Source: a virus
Lineage: Duplodnaviria; Heunggongvirae; Uroviricota; Caudoviricetes
Length of the DNA: 42,920 bases
Direction: 5' to 3' (one strand)
IMG/VR virus record: IMGVR_UViG_2541047955_000001
Span: 1-42,920 of that record
Positions 1 through 18,261 of this stretch are shown piece after piece (the first letter of the stretch is position 1; every line of letters starts with the position of its first letter). The position numbers and the translations under genes were made by a program. The notes beneath the pieces were generated by a model. It was given only the letters and a program-made list of their open reading frames with translations, had not been told where the DNA came from and searched no databases.

Positions 1-1254
1 ATGCTGGAACAAATGGGCATTGCCGCGAAGCAAGCCTCGTATAAATTAGCGCAACTCTCCAGCCGCGAAAAAAATCGTGTGCTGGAAAAAATCGCCGATG
101 AACTGGAAGCACAAAGCGAAAGTATCCTCAACGCTAACGCGCAGGATGTTGCAGACGCGCGTGCCAATGGCCTTAGCGAAGCGATGCTTGACCGTCTGGC
201 ACTGACGCCCGCACGGCTGAAAGGCATTGCCGACGATGTGCGCCAGGTGTGCAATCTCGCCGATCCGGTGGGGCAGGTAATCGATGGCGGCGTACTGGAC
301 AGCGGCCTGCGTCTGGAGCGCCGTCGCGTGCCGCTGGGGGTGATTGGCGTGATTTATGAAGCGCGCCCGAACGTGACGGTTGATGTTGCTTCCCTGTGCC
401 TGAAAACCGGTAACGCGGTGATCCTGCGCGGCGGCAAAGAAACCTGTCGCACTAACGCTGCAACGGTAGCGGTGATTCAGGACGCCCTGAAATCCTGCGG
501 CTTACCGGCGGGTGCCGTGCAGGCAATTGATAATCCTGACCGTGCGCTGGTCAGTGAAATGCTGCGTATGGATAAATACATCGACATGCTGATCCCGCGC
601 GGTGGGGCTGGTTTGCATAAACTGTGCCGCGAGCAGTCGACAATCCCGGTGATCACAGGCGGTATAGGCGTATGCCATATTTACGTTGATGAAAGCGCAG
701 AGATCGCTGAAGTATTAAAAGTGATCGTCAACGCGAAAACTCAGCGACCAAGCACATGTAATACGGTAGAAACCTTGCTGGTAAATAAAAACATCGCCGA
801 TAGCTTCCTGCCCGCATTAAGCAAGCAAATGGCGGAAAGCGGCGTGACGTTACACGCAGATGCTGCTGCGCTGGCGCAGTTGCAGACAGGCCCCGCGAAG
901 GTGGTGGCGGTTAAAGCCGAAGAGTATGACGATGAGTTTCTGTCATTAGATTTGAACGTCAAAATCGTTAGCGATCTTGACGATGCCATCGCCCATATTC
1001 GTGAACACGGCACGCAACACTCCGATGCGATCCTGACCCGCGATATGCGCAACGCCCAGCGTTTTGTTAACGAAGTGGATTCCTCCGCTGTTTACGTTAA
1101 CGCCTCTACGCGTTTTACCGACGGCGGCCAGTTTGGACTGGGGGCGGAAGTTGCGGTAAGCACACAAAAACTCCACGCGCGCGGCCCAATGGGGCTGGAA
1201 GCACTGACCACTTATAAGTGGATCGGCATTGGTGATTACACCATTCGTGCGTAA
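1..1254 (+). CDS. proA: gamma-glutamyl phosphate reductase
   Basis: 417-aa ORF; sequence matches E. coli ProA as recalled ([30 protein letters not shown]... YTIRA); host chromosomal gene. Confidence 0.97.
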
Positions 1255-1368
1255 ATAAAACCGGGTGATGCAAAAGTAGCCATTTGATTCACAAGGCCAT
1301 TGACGCATCGCCCGGTTAGTTTTAACCTTGTCCACCGTGATTCACGTTCGTGAACATGTCCTTTCAGG

Positions 1369-1444
1369 GCCGATATAGCTCAGTTGGTAGAGCAGCGCAT
1401 TCGTAATGCGAAGGTCGTAGGTTCGACTCCTATTATCGGCACCA
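1369..1444 (+). tRNA. thrW: tRNA-Thr (anticodon CGU)
   Basis: 76-nt cloverleaf GCCGATATAGCTCAGTTGGTAGAGCAGCGCATTCGTAATGCG...ATCGGCACCA; anticodon loop TTCGTAA; classic P22 attB tRNA. Confidence 0.93.
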
Positions 1445-1446
1445 TT
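1399..1446. other. attL core (3' part of thrW)
   Basis: attcgtaatgcgaaggtcgtaggttcgactcctattatcggcaccatt repeated at 41423-41470. Confidence 0.85.
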
Positions 1447-1458
1447 TAAATCAATAAG

Positions 1459-2619
1459 TTACCGCACATTTAAGTAAACCACGTTCTCCTCTTGTGCCGT
1501 ATTTGTGCCATTGCGACTTATAATCGCATCGATTTTGCTCGCGTGCTCGGTGAGATGCCCGGCTGAAAGGTGAGCGTATCTTTGAACCATTTCGAGAGTT
1601 TCCCATCCCCCCATCTCTTTAAGTGCAAGAAGAGAGACTCCGGACTGAACCAGCCAGCTTGCCCAGGTGTGTCTCAGGTCATGGAATCGGAAGTTGCTAA
1701 TGCCTGCCCGCTTTAACGCTCCCTTCCATGCTTTGTTGCTATCGGTTCTCATCTTCCTTACCGCAGCTGTTTTTGTTCCGTCGCTTCGGTAGGCAGGTTT
1801 GGTGTGGACAAATACCCATCTCTTATGGAGCCCCTGCTGTTTTCTTAATATCTGGCATGCGGTTTCGTTAAGAGGAACTCCGATCGCATTGCCAGCTTTT
1901 GTTTCATCAGGGTGCATCCATGCCATTTTCTTATCCAGATCGACCTGTGACCACTCAAGGTCTGTAACGTTGGAACGGCGAAGGCCTGTCGTGATTGCAA
2001 ACATGACCACAGGGAAGAAATGAGGAGCAATTTCTGCAAACAGGCGCTTCGATTCCTCCTCTGTAAGCCATCTGATTCGTCCATTCTTAACGCGTGGTGT
2101 TGATATTTTGGGTGCCCTGTCAAGCCATCCCCATTCAACAGCCATATTGAGAATAGCACGAAGTATTGCCAGATGCCGCGTCTTCGTTCCTTTGCTTGCC
2201 AGCTTTGGTTTATACTCCGGCACTGGCTTGCCAAGCCGCAAACACCTGTCCCGGCTCATTTCCCAGTTCAGGCGATGGCGGCGGTTTTCCATCCCGTCTA
2301 CCGCCTCCATTATTTTTTCTGTTGTTATGTCAGAGAGAATGGTTTCTCTGAAGTGCAACATCCAGAACGATATAATGCTCTTGTCATCATCAATGGACTT
2401 CTTATCCGCTTTCTCACGCAGCCACCGTATGCAGGCTTCCTTGAATAGCTTTTTCGGTGATTCCCCGAGATTTTTTACTCTCCACGCTTCTGCTTTCAGA
2501 CGATCGTGAAGTTCTTGCGCTTGCCTTTTGTCCGATGTTTCAAGAGAGCGTCTAACTCTTGATCCATCTGGCGCGACGAAATCGCAGTGCCACGTGCCAC
2601 CGCGTAGTTTGATTGACAT
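1459..2619 (-). CDS. int: tyrosine integrase, P22 Int type
   Basis: 386 aa; C-terminal HDLRHTWASWLVQSGV...YAHL catalytic region; N-terminus resembles P22 Int; adjacent to tRNA 3' end. Confidence 0.95.
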   Translation of the reverse strand: MSIKLRGGTWHCDFVAPDGSRVRRSLETSDKRQAQELHDRLKAEAWRVKNLGESPKKLFKEACIRWLREKADKKSIDDDKSIISFWMLHFRETILSDITTEKIMEAVDGMENRRHRLNWEMSRDRCLRLGKPVPEYKPKLASKGTKTRHLAILRAILNMAVEWGWLDRAPKISTPRVKNGRIRWLTEEESKRLFAEIAPHFFPVVMFAITTGLRRSNVTDLEWSQVDLDKKMAWMHPDETKAGNAIGVPLNETACQILRKQQGLHKRWVFVHTKPAYRSDGTKTAAVRKMRTDSNKAWKGALKRAGISNFRFHDLRHTWASWLVQSGVSLLALKEMGGWETLEMVQRYAHLSAGHLTEHASKIDAIISRNGTNTAQEENVVYLNVR

Positions 2620-2843
2620 GCTTTAACCTCCTGCACATCAACCGCATTCACCGCGCTATTGTGTCTCACAGACTTAAGCGCCGCAATGCAGTCTGACTTG
2701 CAAATGCGATATGGGCTTTTAGGTTTATCTGGATTTATCTTTGCGGCCTGAAGTCGTCCACTTCGTATCCACTGCGTGATAGTTCCTTTGTCTACCTTCA
2801 GATACGACGCTGCCTCTTCACGAGTGAAGATTTCTTCTTCCAC
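2496..2843 (-). CDS. xis: excisionase
   Basis: 115 aa, immediately upstream of and overlapping int; HTH-like N-terminus; size matches P22 Xis. Confidence 0.7.
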   Translation of the reverse strand: MEEEIFTREEAASYLKVDKGTITQWIRSGRLQAAKINPDKPKSPYRICKSDCIAALKSVRHNSAVNAVDVQEVKACQSNYAVARGTAISSRQMDQELDALLKHRTKGKRKNFTIV

Positions 2844-2932
2844 CTGGAGTCTCCATTTATTGAGTTGGTATTATTGCGGTAGGTCTGGATATCTTGAGAA
2901 ATGAACAGTCCTCATCGAGTGTGAGACTGTGG

Positions 2933-3277
2933 TTAGTCCTTGCGTAGTTCGCTAATTCTTCTGTAAGTCTCTGGTGCTTTGTTTCCGTGTATCTTCATTT
3001 CAGACTTCAACAGAGCAACAAGGGAATTCCATTCGTTGAGGATTCCTTTGAATGCCGGAACGCGCTTTGCAACCTTGTCGAATGAATCTCTGATTTCTGG
3101 AATCTGCTCAACAAGTGCAACGCATCGTCGGAAATCGGCTGCGTCATGTGGAGCGCCGAAGTGATGACCATAGATATTCTTTTTCAGTCCACATGCGATT
3201 GAGGCAAGAGTTGCGCTACTGATGCCGACATCGCCAGTCGATTGCCATTTCAAAACCTTCATAGCCAAATCTGACAT
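2933..3277 (-). CDS. hypothetical early-left protein
   Basis: 114-aa ORF in the leftward operon; no recognised motif. Confidence 0.5.
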   Translation of the reverse strand: MSDLAMKVLKWQSTGDVGISSATLASIACGLKKNIYGHHFGAPHDAADFRRCVALVEQIPEIRDSFDKVAKRVPAFKGILNEWNSLVALLKSEMKIHGNKAPETYRRISELRKD

Positions 3278-3289
3278 TTCTTGTCTCCA

Positions 3290-3316
3290 ATAAAAAAACC
3301 GCCATCAGGCGGCTTG
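3290..3316 (-). terminator. intrinsic terminator (minus strand)
   Basis: Minus-strand hairpin GCCGCC-TGAT-GGCGG followed by T6. Confidence 0.6.
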
Positions 3317-3472
3317 GTGTTCTTTCAGTTCTTCAATTCGAATATTGGTTACGTCTGCATGTGCTATCTGCGCCCATATCATCCAGTGGTCATAGCAGTC
3401 GTTGATGTTCTCTGCTTCGATAACTCTGTTAAATGGCTCTCCATTCCATTCACCTGTGACTCGGAAGTGCAT
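3305..3472 (-). CDS. small hypothetical protein (55 aa)
   Basis: Not in ORF track (<60 aa); MHFRVTGEWNGEPF...; GGAGA-type RBS 5 nt upstream; flanked by terminators. Confidence 0.4.
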   Translation of the reverse strand: MHFRVTGEWNGEPFNRVIEAENINDCYDHWMIWAQIAHADVTNIRIEELKEHQAA

Positions 3473-3545: not shown

Positions 3546-3820
3546 TTCGTTCAAATTGCGTTTACTTCTTGGCGTTCTGCTCATCCATATCGATATACCA
3601 TGGGTTGCTTCCCTTGGGCATGTTTAACGACTGCTCGCGATAGTATCTGATGCGCTCCATGAAATATTCGCGTGAGTGCTCAGGTTGCTATCATGATACC
3701 TGCTCAGTGATAACAGGTATGTTAAGGCGCTCTCTGTACTCCATGCCTGATGCTGCAAGGTCAACGTTTACCTTGTTCTGTTTTTCTTTCGATTTCTCGG
3801 CGATGTTATGCCTGACATTG

Positions 3821-4063
3821 TCAACCCGCCTCCTTCTGAACATAACGGTTATAAATCAGTCCCTGAGGGCCATAAGGAAGCGGGATGTGCAACTCCTCTG
3901 GTTCAGAAACTATCCATTCCCCGGCCATCTCGGCTGGAGAGGTAATGATAAGTTGTTTGCTAATAAAAGGACCACTCCTCTCAACAACAAGCTTACCATC
4001 TTCATTAATAAAAGCTTGGATGTCAGGTGTGCTTCCACACTTGGTGATGCAGCGTTTGAACAT
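3821..4063 (-). CDS. hypothetical protein
   Basis: Track ORF 3821-4105; start placed at internal Met with GGGGGA-type RBS; the overlapping plus-strand ORF looks antisense-like. Confidence 0.4.
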   Translation of the reverse strand: MFKRCITKCGSTPDIQAFINEDGKLVVERSGPFISKQLIITSPAEMAGEWIVSEPEELHIPLPYGPQGLIYNRYVQKEAG

Positions 4064-4189: not shown

Positions 4190-4951
4190 TCACCCATCTT
4201 GCTGCGGTGCTACTATTGAAAAGTACTCACACCCTTTAGCCCAAATAGTTTTGATAGTTGTCCAACTGACTGGAACCTTGATTTCGATTCTCCCGCTGCC
4301 GTCACAAGTTTCGCAATCATCATCACCAAAGCATTCCGGGCAGCTTATAAACGTAGTTTCTGAAAATTCACCGGATAGCACACCCTTAGCGCCGTTCTCA
4401 GCGGTTAGTTTCTTCGGCACTATAACCCAACCATCCGGAGTTACCGGAGAGTTGCCATTTATATCGAAGTTTGGCTCTGCGTCCTGAACCAGGAGGATGT
4501 AACCATTCTTGGCAGTATCAAGTTCTAACGCCTCGGTGACGGTGCCGAAATAGCGATTACCTAAATCAGCATCACAAGTGCTTACATCAATGGAAACTTC
4601 CATGCCTTCGATTAATTCTGCCAAGTTGTAAGCTTGGCTTACAGGTTCGGCTTCCAGTTCTGCTATGCGCTTATTTGCTGCTTCCAGCTCATCCAGCAGC
4701 GCCAAGACGGTAGCAGGATTGGCTGCGGCGATGAATTCAGCATTGGCCTGCTGTTCCATTTGGAAATCTTCATCGAAACCGCTTTCAGGATGCGCTCCTT
4801 CAATTCTGCAAATGGGAATATATCCAACAACGTCACGATGAATTAGCGCATCATCACAATCAGATCGGCTCTCTCCATATTCGAGCGACCACACACCACA
4901 CGTTGCTTTCTCTGCCTTTTCACGCAGTGCCTGATAGTCAATCTTGCTCAC
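4190..4951 (-). CDS. Ead/Ea22-like protein
   Basis: 253 aa; central coiled coil LLDELEAANKRIAELEAE typical of Ea22-like proteins; C-terminal CPECFGDDDCETCDGSG Cys motif. Confidence 0.6.
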   Translation of the reverse strand: MSKIDYQALREKAEKATCGVWSLEYGESRSDCDDALIHRDVVGYIPICRIEGAHPESGFDEDFQMEQQANAEFIAAANPATVLALLDELEAANKRIAELEAEPVSQAYNLAELIEGMEVSIDVSTCDADLGNRYFGTVTEALELDTAKNGYILLVQDAEPNFDINGNSPVTPDGWVIVPKKLTAENGAKGVLSGEFSETTFISCPECFGDDDCETCDGSGRIEIKVPVSWTTIKTIWAKGCEYFSIVAPQQDG

Positions 4952-5192
4952 TGGTTGCCTCCTGCTTTTCTGCCTTCAACACCATGCGAGAACCATCATC
5001 CAGCTCCCACGCGATCTCACCACCTTCAGCCATGACCAGTCGCCACACCAATTGAGCAGCCTCATTGGTAACATCACGACCTGGATCATTGCCAACGCGC
5101 ATACGTCCACCTTCAACATCGCGCATTTTTGCCAGCATGATAGTTTTTGATAGCGGTGAAAAACCAAGCTGTAGTCGTGCTGAATTACTCAC
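4938..5192 (-). CDS. hypothetical protein
   Basis: 84-aa track ORF with GTG start overlapping the upstream stop. Confidence 0.4.
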
Positions 5193-7511: not shown

Positions 7512-8480
7512 TTAGTAGGTTATTTTTGTTGCGAATACTTCGCCTTTTACGATGGCTGTTATGATATTTTTAGCAACATCTTCTGATGCACCAACCTTGA
7601 TAAGGTCAGCAAGTATTTTGTTATTTACTTCTTTCCGGTGAGCTTTATCCTTTGCTCTACGCTCTTCTTCTTCCTTGATTCTTTTTTCTTCTGCTATTCT
7701 GGCTTGCTCTTTTGCTTCAGCCTCGCGACGGATTCGTTCAGCCTCCTCCTGTGCTTTTCTGCGTTCTGCTTCAATTGCTGCCTGCTTTTCTCTTTCAGCT
7801 CGTTCTGCTGCCTCTTTTGCTTCGCGCTGTGCTCGTTGCTCGGCTTCAATGCGTTCACGCTCTGCACGTTCCGCTGCGGCCTTAGCTTCTGCTTCTCGCC
7901 TTGCTGCTGCTTCAATTTCGGCTTTTGCCTTTGCTTCGGCTTCAGCTCTGGCTTTCTCTTCAGCTTCTCTTTTTAAGCGTTCTTCATGCTCTCGCTTTTC
8001 CTGCTCCGCTTTGAGTCTTGCCTCTTCTCTTTGGCGGTCAAATTCGCGATCCATCAAAATCGCTATTTCATGGTCAGACTCAATTTGCTTTGCGAGAGCT
8101 TCAGCTGCTGCCTTAGCTTCTTCTTCGGCTTTAATCCGCGCCTGTTCTTCCTCATAATCAGTAAGAGGCTGGCGTGCCTTGGCTTTCAGTTCATCAAGGC
8201 GATCGCGCACTGTCTTGCGGTTGGCATCAATTAGCTTTGGAATTTCCTTCAGTTCAGCAACAAGGTCTTTTCCAAGACCATCGAGATATGTTTTCGTCTG
8301 CGCAACTTTATACGCCAGAGAAGCGATCTCCTTTCTGCCCTTTGCCGTTGTGATATCAGGCACAAAGGACATAACTTCACGTTCAACCTTTTGAAGGATT
8401 TCTTCAATCTGGTCGGCAGACTGAAATACAGTCATTGCATTTGCTTTTTCAATAACAACTAAATCTGTTACTTCACTCAT
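7512..8480 (-). CDS. hypothetical coiled-coil protein with Glu/Arg/Ala/Lys-rich low-complexity region
   Basis: Track ORF 7512-8534; start at MSEVTDL with GGAGGA RBS; ~170-aa tract of AEAKAKAEIEAAARREAEAKAAAERAER-type repeats. Confidence 0.6.
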   Translation of the reverse strand: MSEVTDLVVIEKANAMTVFQSADQIEEILQKVEREVMSFVPDITTAKGRKEIASLAYKVAQTKTYLDGLGKDLVAELKEIPKLIDANRKTVRDRLDELKAKARQPLTDYEEEQARIKAEEEAKAAAEALAKQIESDHEIAILMDREFDRQREEARLKAEQEKREHEERLKREAEEKARAEAEAKAKAEIEAAARREAEAKAAAERAERERIEAEQRAQREAKEAAERAEREKQAAIEAERRKAQEEAERIRREAEAKEQARIAEEKRIKEEEERRAKDKAHRKEVNNKILADLIKVGASEDVAKNIITAIVKGEVFATKITY

Positions 8481-8614
8481 ATATCCTCCATCAAAAAAAT
8501 TGCCCTCACATCGGAGGGCAAAGAAGATTTCCAATAATCAGAACAAGTCGGCTCCTGTTTAGTTAAGAGCGACATTGCTCCGTGTATTCACTCGTTGGAA
8601 TGAATACACAGTGC

Positions 8615-18105: not shown

Positions 18106-18180
18106 GGGTCAGTCGTATAAAGGTCATTACGGAAGGCTGTTAACCTTCTTATCGTGGTTCGAGTCCACGCTGTCCCGCCA
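18106..18180 (+). tRNA. tRNA-like, Asn (GUU) anticodon, imperfect stems
   Basis: 75 nt ending CCA; anticodon stem GAAGG/CCTTC, loop CTGTTAA; T-loop TTCGAGT; one T-T mismatch in acceptor and D stems. Confidence 0.45.
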
Positions 18181-18185
18181 AATAT

Positions 18186-18261
18186 GCTGGTTTAGCTCCA
18201 ATGGTAGAGCGGTCGCCTTGTAAGCGAATGGGTAGCGGTTCAAGTCCGTTAACCAGCACCA
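18186..18261 (+). tRNA. tRNA-Thr (UGU)
   Basis: 76 nt; 7-bp acceptor stem GCTGGTT/AACCAGC; D stem GCTC/GAGC; anticodon loop CTTGTAA; T-loop TTCAAGT; 3' CCA. Confidence 0.6.

Follow-up and report, generated by a model that had tools for sequence, protein, structure and literature searches.

The window analysed here is a 42,920-nucleotide (nt) stretch of virus DNA (IMG/VR record IMGVR_UViG_2541047955_000001, positions 1 to 42,920), and its early region holds a gene of the Ead/Ea22 family that encodes a protein of 253 amino acids (aa). The C-terminal tail of this protein is an autonomous, acidic domain of approximately 75 residues that is not catalogued in Pfam or NCBIfam. Within the tail, four Cys residues appear to form a single zinc knuckle of the type found in the chaperone DnaJ, and its most plausible role is that of a structural staple for the hairpin of a larger, undescribed domain. 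The account as a whole, i.e., a mosaic Ea22 gene with a zinc-stapled, protein-binding cassette and not a DnaJ co-chaperone, is on balance probably correct. Its anatomical part is held with high confidence; the role of the cassette as a binding module is put forward tentatively.

A widespread tail domain with an optional Cys knuckle

The tail is found far beyond the family in which it was first noticed. Searching with the last 88 residues of the protein (HMMER) retrieves 1,316 representative clusters, defined at the 50% identity level, with E ≤ 0.001, and 830 of these with E ≤ 1e-10. Among the best 150 matches, which are the ones listed, the proteins that carry the tail are 95–442 aa long. In addition, a search seeded with three distant phage homologues returns many proteins of 74–95 aa that consist of the module on its own, such as a 74-aa protein of a Cupriavidus prophage. 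In a Pfam census of 145 tail representatives, the accompanying domains are DUF550/dATP-dGTP pyrophosphohydrolase (10), Ead_Ea22 (8), DUF551 (8), which usually sits behind the module, Lar (2) and ASCH/DUF3850 (1), the remainder being devoid of a Pfam domain. This census replaced a single-linkage clustering of the N-terminal partners, which was uninformative since short shared linkers chain everything together. Altogether, the domain is found in phages of Enterobacteria, Pseudomonas, Vibrio, Cupriavidus and others. Within E. coli, the tail is present in 191 of 5,426 complete genomes; the full-length gene is rare, at least 80% of it being covered in 5 of them.

Despite this distribution, no model for the tail exists in Pfam or NCBIfam, and no match came from NCBIfam when either the whole protein or the tail was scanned. 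In PHROGs, only families of unknown function are hit, the tail falling within phrog_60. A full-text literature search for the motif LTAENGAK returned zero papers, and searches for 'Ea22-like' returned no functional study of the Cys4 tail. The module is not strictly a C-terminal cassette, as it occupies the N-terminus in some phages: in Pseudomonas phage vB_PstS-pAN (L003, 2968–3516) it is followed by an extension of approximately 90 aa, and in Klebsiella and Raoultella proteins (P0362–P0364, P0315) by DUF551. Another observation concerns the end of the chain. Ea22 proteins are reported to share a '+GE' C-terminal tripeptide (PMC7093339). In many carriers of the module the last residues are ...KGE (e.g., P0108, P0117, P0239 and P0349), and in the window protein they are ...QQDG. 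Judging from the codons involved, the tripeptide may simply encode the Shine–Dalgarno sequence of the next gene (AAR GGN GAR).

The four Cys residues of the tail, C204, C207, C213 and C216, are kept in 303 of 303 close homologues and are invariant in three relatives from Serratia, Pseudomonas and Vibrio phages that share 34–40% identity with the window protein; a fifth Cys (C241) is not conserved. The segment CPECFGDDDCETCDGSGRI (residues 204–222) contains one exact CxxCxGxG unit (CETCDGSG, residues 213–220) preceded by a partial copy (CPECFGDD, residues 204–211). The glycines of the GxG part vary among homologues, where forms such as DCSG, DRSG, DSSG, CDDCGDAG and CEVCGGEI occur. A Cys census was made over 78 non-redundant family members. 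One full CxxCxGxG plus a CxxC is the arrangement in 41 of them, 11 have two full units with a longer spacer at the same place, 16 have at least four Cys arranged otherwise (e.g., CCC...CxxC or CxCxxCxxCH), and two further Cys4 members fell outside the regular-expression match. The Cys4 site is lacking in eight members, three of which have one to three Cys and five of which have none. At least four Cys are kept in about 88–90% of the members. An earlier note on this DNA, made from its letters alone, had tied its reading of the tail to conservation of these Cys residues among homologues, and for most of the family they are indeed conserved.

In the Cys-less relatives, the LTAENGAK..GEF and V.W..IK.I motifs are retained and a short acidic hairpin (e.g., LDENGDE or LDDNGNE) takes the position of the knuckle. 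In an alignment of 79 diverse sequences, the columns that are at least 90% conserved are P179, L182, T183, A184, E185, N186, G187, A188, K189, L192, G194, E195, F196, C213, C216, W230, I233, K234 and I236. Judging from the alignment, the Cys site is strongly but not universally conserved and the most constant features of the domain lie outside the knuckle. The exchange of the knuckle for an acidic NG-turn hairpin in a minority of relatives that keep the rest of the domain argues against a catalytic or chaperone role for the Cys site.

An AlphaFold2 model of the 88-residue tail, built from the 79-sequence alignment, has a mean predicted local distance difference test score (pLDDT) of 87.3, and 62 of its residues score at least 90. 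The model begins with an ordered segment that includes a short helix (residues 184–192), followed by strands at approximately 196–203 and 221–228 that flank the Cys4 loop (204–220), and by a C-terminal helix at approximately 230–245, which is 65–80 in the numbering of the tail model; the full-length model reproduces this module. As predicted, the LTAENGAK..GEF segment and the C-terminal W..IK.I helix would pack around the beta-hairpin with the Cys residues at its tip. The tail thus has what a generic Cys4 knuckle would have, four conserved putative ligands at a hairpin tip, approximately 10% of the distant members lacking the site. A Foldseek comparison of the tail model with the PDB gave a best E of 2.4 and template modelling scores of at most 0.34, with no convincing neighbour and no DnaJ structure among the results. 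Against the predicted viral structures of BFVD the best E was 0.12, all matches being uncharacterised, and a phmmer search of the full protein against PDB sequences gave no match. The isoelectric point (pI) is 4.36 for the module and 4.15 for the whole protein. The net charge of the module is negative in 77 of the 78 family members (median −7.2), and acidic residues prevail at the hairpin tip whether Cys is present or not, with a median of 6 acidic residues vs 1 basic residue.

Resemblance to DnaJ and to other zinc knuckles

In the earlier note, the C-terminal segment was likened to the zinc-binding CxxCxGxG repeats of DnaJ and the tail was considered a notable chaperone-like zinc module, to be checked by a profile search. 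Such searches bear out the likeness for the family and not for the window protein itself, which does not match PF00684 (DnaJ_CXXCXGXG) even at E ≤ 10 and has only 12-residue, sub-threshold Pfam matches to GRXCR1/2_C (E = 0.034) and Anti-TRAP (E = 0.081). DnaJ_CXXCXGXG is matched at E ≤ 0.1 by 14 of the 79 family members (best E 1.8e-5), Anti-TRAP and GRXCR1/2_C by six each and BSD2_CRD by one. The best relative reaches 25.3 bits against PF00684, under the curated cut-off of 32.7, and its match covers positions 1–35 of 65, which therefore corresponds to one zinc centre of two. Similarly, the cut-off of 32 bits for Anti-TRAP (PF15777) is reached neither by the window protein (13.4 bits over 12 residues) nor by the best relative (22.6 bits). 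Among PDB sequences, the family profile best matches the zinc finger of DNAJA3 (2ctt, E = 0.006) and E. coli DnaJ (1exk, E = 0.008), with alignments restricted to CxxC...CxxCxGxG, and it also matches anti-TRAP.

The Cys-rich domain of DnaJ/Hsp40 proteins (PF00684; 1exk, 2ctt) and the tail are alike in having a CxxCxGxG knuckle on a beta-hairpin. They differ in that the DnaJ domain has a spacer of approximately 10–18 residues and two zinc centres, whereas the window module has a spacer of 5 residues and one putative centre, embedded in an alpha/beta scaffold that is unrelated to DnaJ. The four CxxCxGxG repeats of DnaJ are represented by four conserved Cys residues, i.e., one exact unit and a partial one, so that the repeat array claimed earlier shrinks to a single knuckle. 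Neither a J-domain with its HPD motif nor the DnaJ C-terminal substrate-binding domains were found in Pfam and NCBIfam scans of the whole protein. By sequence, the Cys residues would thus form one DnaJ-type CxxC...CxxCxGxG knuckle pair, which is half of a DnaJ Cys-rich domain, and the tail can be called DnaJ-type at the level of the knuckle but not a member of the DnaJ family. With one putative zinc centre, no other DnaJ domain and relatives that dispense with Cys, the chaperone-like character suggested in the earlier note is not supported. The likeness is not new as an annotation either: some carriers are already entered in RefSeq, UniRef and nr under 'molecular chaperone DnaJ' or 'DnaJ-like protein', a label that is misleading and, on the present comparisons, unjustified. 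In the literature, CXXCXGXG together with phage is found in genome-annotation mentions only, and as an annotation, the DnaJ-type knuckle of small phage proteins is familiar though unexplained.

Single-module proteins with a DnaJ-type zinc knuckle include Anti-TRAP (PF15777; 3lcz), the C-terminal domain of GRXCR1/2 and BSD2; they are small, and the knuckle serves them as a scaffold on which another protein is bound. Beyond the knuckle of approximately 12–30 residues, they have no significant sequence or fold relation to the module, and nothing in them corresponds to the LTAENGAK segment or the C-terminal helix. A precedent for a small zinc-binding protein encoded in the same phage region is Ea8.5 of lambda, a homeodomain/zinc-finger hybrid from the exo-xis region (cited in PMC10834534), which is of a different fold and family. 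No similarity of the tail to Ea8.5 turned up, no direct comparison having been made. PMC10834534, the one Ea22 paper examined in this respect, mentions zinc only for Ea8.5 and describes no Ea22 variant that has a Cys4 tail.

The Ea22 scaffold, the exchange joint and the genomic setting

The identity of the gene agrees with what had been proposed from the letters alone. The open reading frame (ORF) exists as claimed, and a 100% identical copy with the same start on the chromosome of E. coli AHB29 is annotated in RefSeq as 'ead/Ea22-like family protein' (WP_021575651.1). Ead_Ea22 (PF13935) is the sole Pfam domain of the whole protein and matches residues 2–117 with E = 7.7e-24 and 85.3 bits, against a cut-off of 27 bits. 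Helices are confidently predicted at residues 61–76 and 79–101 (pLDDT 80–92) in a full-length AlphaFold model, which was used for secondary-structure boundaries only. The segment LLDELEAANKRIAELEAE (residues 85–102), in which the earlier note saw a coiled coil, is predicted to be helical with the same confidence (pLDDT 80–92). Between this region and the tail lies a middle module that, scanned alone, has no PHROG or family match and is modelled with pLDDT < 50. The middle module is itself mobile, as it forms the N-terminus of P0019, a 137-aa protein named 'molecular chaperone DnaJ' in the databases.

Known relatives are lambda Ea22 (P03756) and the Ea22 variants V1–V3 of Shiga-toxin (Stx) phages, which occupy the same slot in the early-left operon, from the recombination genes to xis/int (PMC10834534, PMC7093339). 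They belong to the same Pfam family in their N-terminal helical part and have the same design, in which a common N-terminus and helix bear a C-terminal domain that can be exchanged. The lambda protein forms tetramers and is pro-lysogenic, and C-terminal domains vary between phages (PMC10834534, PMC7093339). The C-terminal domain of lambda Ea22 is dimeric and is insufficient alone (PMC10834534), and the pro-lysogenic effect is known only for the Ea22 proteins of lambda, Phi24B, 933W and P27 (PMC7093339). Lambda Ea22 aligns with the window protein over the first approximately 68 residues only (BLASTP, 26% identity, E = 2e-4). The lambda C-terminal domain, solved by nuclear magnetic resonance, and the DUF551-type tails are unrelated to the Cys4 cassette; BLASTP finds likeness to lambda Ea22 in those N-terminal residues alone, and neither the PDB sequence search nor Foldseek matched its C-terminal domain to the tail.

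Closer relatives reveal where the tails part. HK629 gp33, HK620 HkaG and Sf6 gp21, which are ead/Ea22-like proteins from phages of the lambdoid and P22-like kinds, share 94–96% DNA identity with the gene over the first 525–540 nt, a stretch that includes the sequence GNSPVTPDGW. In a megablast search against phage genomes, 305 records were matched, and coverage of the gene never exceeded 69%. The matches to HK629, HK620 and HK633 (95–96% identity) end at nt 525, which corresponds to residue 175. When the 88-aa tail is the query, Sf6 and Stx1a phages match just its first 20 residues (GNSPVTPDGWVIVPKKLTAE), i.e., GNSPVTPDGW plus the ten residues that follow. GNSPVTPDGW is invariant in an alignment of HK629 gp33, Sf6 gp21, the window protein and three tail carriers, and the tails diverge past it: HK629 has a DUF551-like tail (...VTHWMPLP), Sf6 a different one again and the window protein the Cys-containing one. 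Because similarity stops there and different tails follow, GNSPVTPDGW behaves as a recombination joint at which C-terminal cassettes are exchanged. The features are collected in Table 1.

Table 1. Features of the Ea22-like gene and of the prophage around it, in window coordinates
Feature	Position	Strand	Residues	Basis or remark
Complete Ea22-like gene	4190..4951	minus	1-253	GTG start, 253 codons plus stop; ORF list, sequence, identical RefSeq coding sequence
Shine–Dalgarno sequence AGGAGG	4958..4963	minus		6-nt spacer to GTG; read from the sequence
Ead/Ea22 family region	4601..4948	minus	2-117	Pfam PF13935, helices, weak similarity to lambda Ea22
Middle module EVSIDVSTCDADLGNRYFGTVTEALELDTAKNGYILLVQDAEPNFDIN	4457..4600	minus	118-165	Alignment; common to HK629 gp33 and the P0019 N-terminus
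Joint GNSPVTPDGW	4427..4456	minus	166-175	End of similarity to HK629/HK620/Sf6; invariant in the alignment
LTAENGAK/zinc-hairpin module	4193..4426	minus	176-253	1,316 clusters, stand-alone forms, model, pI
Most conserved motif LTAENGAKGVLSGEF	4364..4408	minus	182-196	At least 90% conserved in 79 members; K189 invariant
Cys4 knuckle CPECFGDDDCETCDGSG	4292..4342	minus	204-220	Hairpin tip; putative ligands C204, C207, C213, C216
C-terminal helix WTTIKTIWAKGCEYF	4220..4264	minus	230-244	W230 invariant; I233, K234, I236 conserved
proA	1-1254	plus		Attachment end of the prophage (window 1-2619)
tRNA-Thr (cgt)	1369-1444			Attachment end of the prophage
Integrase	1459-2619	minus		Attachment end of the prophage
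tRNA-Asn (gtt)	18106-18180	plus		Inside the prophage
tRNA-Thr (tgt)	18186-18261	plus		Inside the prophage

From its GTG start, the Ea22-like gene shares 14 nt (4938–4951, minus strand) with the 3′ end of DUF7446, the gene upstream of it (4938..5192), within which its strong AGGAGG is also located. This overlap and the position of the AGGAGG suggest translational coupling along the early-left operon. Overlapping plus-strand ORFs of 78, 70 and 58 aa were considered and rejected as unsupported, the minus-strand frame being conserved across hundreds of homologues. In the identical AHB29 prophage, the gene order is erf, the anti-RecBCD gene abc2, DUF5405, DUF2737, DUF7446, the Ea22-like gene and several small ORFs, followed by an xis-like gene of the helix-turn-helix type, the integrase gene, tRNA-Thr and proA. 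The window has the same layout, so that, by the annotation of that prophage, the gene lies between the recombination genes and xis/int, as in lambdoid and P22-like phages. It is a mosaic gene of the early-left operon (the exo-xis or 'ea' region) of a P22/HK620/Sf6-like prophage. The element is integrated at a thrW-type tRNA beside proBA, as is evident from the succession of proA, tRNA-Thr (cgt) and integrase at one end of the window.

Some other loci of the prophage deserve mention. Two genes downstream of the Ea22-like gene, the RefSeq annotation of the identical prophage has a frameshifted pseudogene for DNA polymerase III theta (HOT-like), at approximately 3562–3843 of the window (minus strand). 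An ORF of 340 aa (7512–8534, minus strand), which belongs to the early-left operon and is situated between cIII/kil and the immunity region, matches in position a 322-aa coding sequence (2472–3440 of the locus in the identical prophage; approximately 7512–8480 of the window) whose sole annotation is 'coiled-coil domain-containing protein'. The prophage also carries a pair of tRNA genes (18106–18261, plus strand), directly upstream of its lysis genes.

Possible function of the cassette and alternative explanations

How the cassette may act can be proposed as follows. The four Cys residues would bind one Zn2+ ion as a structural staple of the long hairpin tip, and the cassette would be a protein-binding module, either targeting or inhibitory, for a partner that is conserved across Proteobacteria. 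Oligomerisation of the Ea22 scaffold would display the cassette in several copies, and the host would be modulated early after infection or induction, by analogy with lambda Ea22, which biases the lysis-lysogeny decision. A number of observations weigh against this proposal. Heptad scoring of the Ea22 helix is weak, with at best 5 of 13 a/d positions occupied by I, L, M or V and no convincing coiled-coil register; of the coiled coil claimed in the earlier note, the helix is confidently predicted, and the coiled coil is plausible by family. The full-length AlphaFold model (pLDDT 62) is poor outside two regions. Three stand-alone or Cys-less relatives (in the Cupriavidus prophage, on a 105-kb contig and in a metagenomic phage) all lie in phage accessory regions, yet no gene neighbour recurs among them and context therefore gives no functional lead. 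Furthermore, the conserved polar residues E185, N186, K189, E195 and K234 could equally form a small catalytic or ligand-binding site.

A more specific form of the proposal, which we consider unlikely, sees in the cassette a domain dedicated to the targeting or inhibition of a single, highly conserved protein of Proteobacteria, which might be a chaperone, part of the replisome or an immune sensor. It would be used alone as an inhibitor or fused behind effectors, such as the Ea22 scaffold, dNTP pyrophosphohydrolase or Lar, for their delivery. The reverse has to be considered as well, namely that the cassette has no target of its own and serves as a tag that dimerises or stabilises the partner fused in front of it. 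This would suit a module that sits behind very many unrelated N-terminal parts, and the C-terminal domain of lambda Ea22 is indeed dimeric and alone cannot reproduce the phenotype (PMC10834534). However, stand-alone versions of 74–95 aa are common and argue against a pure tag, which would have no role alone; moreover, polar residues of the surface type are very strongly conserved across phages of distant hosts, which suggests a specific ligand. A mere tag is, in our estimate, quite unlikely. The same polar residues, of which E185, N186, K189, E195 and K234 are near-invariant, are a point in favour of a small enzyme, or of a redox module with the Cys pairs as a thiol-disulfide site. Thiol-disulfide activity has been reported for some DnaJ-type zinc fingers, and the fusion partners of the cassette include dATP/dGTP pyrophosphohydrolase and ASCH domains. 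Against a catalytic module stand its size of approximately 75 residues and the lack of a match to any pocket-forming fold, and the Cys-less members speak against Cys chemistry as the conserved function, so that we rate this possibility as highly improbable.

The knuckle has invited two further interpretations. If it imitates the DnaJ zinc centre that helps to lock substrates onto DnaK, which would be the chaperone-like zinc module of the earlier note, the protein would recruit, compete with or redirect the DnaK/DnaJ machinery of the host, on which lambdoid phage replication depends. In favour of such mimicry are the DnaJ-type knuckle itself, the matches of relatives to the PF00684, Anti-TRAP and BSD2_CRD models and of the family profile to 2ctt and 1exk, and the chaperone names of some carriers, though these are automatic. 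On the other hand, the protein lacks both a J-domain and the C-terminal domain of DnaJ, one of two zinc centres is represented, the window protein has no PF00684 match within the E limit applied and its relatives score below the curated cut-off. In addition, Cys-less members exist, the GxG glycines vary, the conserved core lies outside the knuckle and the fold of the whole domain matches no DnaJ structure. Mimicry of DnaJ is accordingly given little credence and counts as very unlikely. Since Cys4 hairpins are common in DNA- and RNA-binding zinc ribbons and the gene is located in a regulatory early region, the tail might also be a nucleic-acid-binding regulator of transcription or recombination. 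The low pI of both module and whole protein, the negative charge of nearly all family modules (77/78) and the acidic hairpin tip appear to disfavour contact with nucleic acids, and this reading is hardly credible. Protein binding by a zinc-stapled cassette on an Ea22 scaffold is the reading that we prefer, at the tentative strength given above.

It is well known that the early-left region is mosaic and that Ea22 tails vary, and the gene was already annotated as Ea22-like. What is new is the recognition of the tail as a distinct, widespread and uncatalogued domain with an optional, single putative zinc knuckle, the invariant joint for tail exchange and, from the comparisons above, the lack of justification for the 'DnaJ chaperone' label. 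The boundaries of the domain are now clear, and the four Cys, the LTAENGAK motif, W230 and K234 stand out as residues for experiments, although in practical terms little is gained as yet. If the cassette were in truth a dedicated targeting or inhibitor domain, it would define a new domain family for host takeover or anti-defence. Ea22 proteins have a part in whether lambdoid and Shiga-toxin phages enter lysis or lysogeny, and they act via phage-specific C-terminal domains. One more of these Ea22 tails is hereby defined, and it is a tail that is not specific to Ea22.

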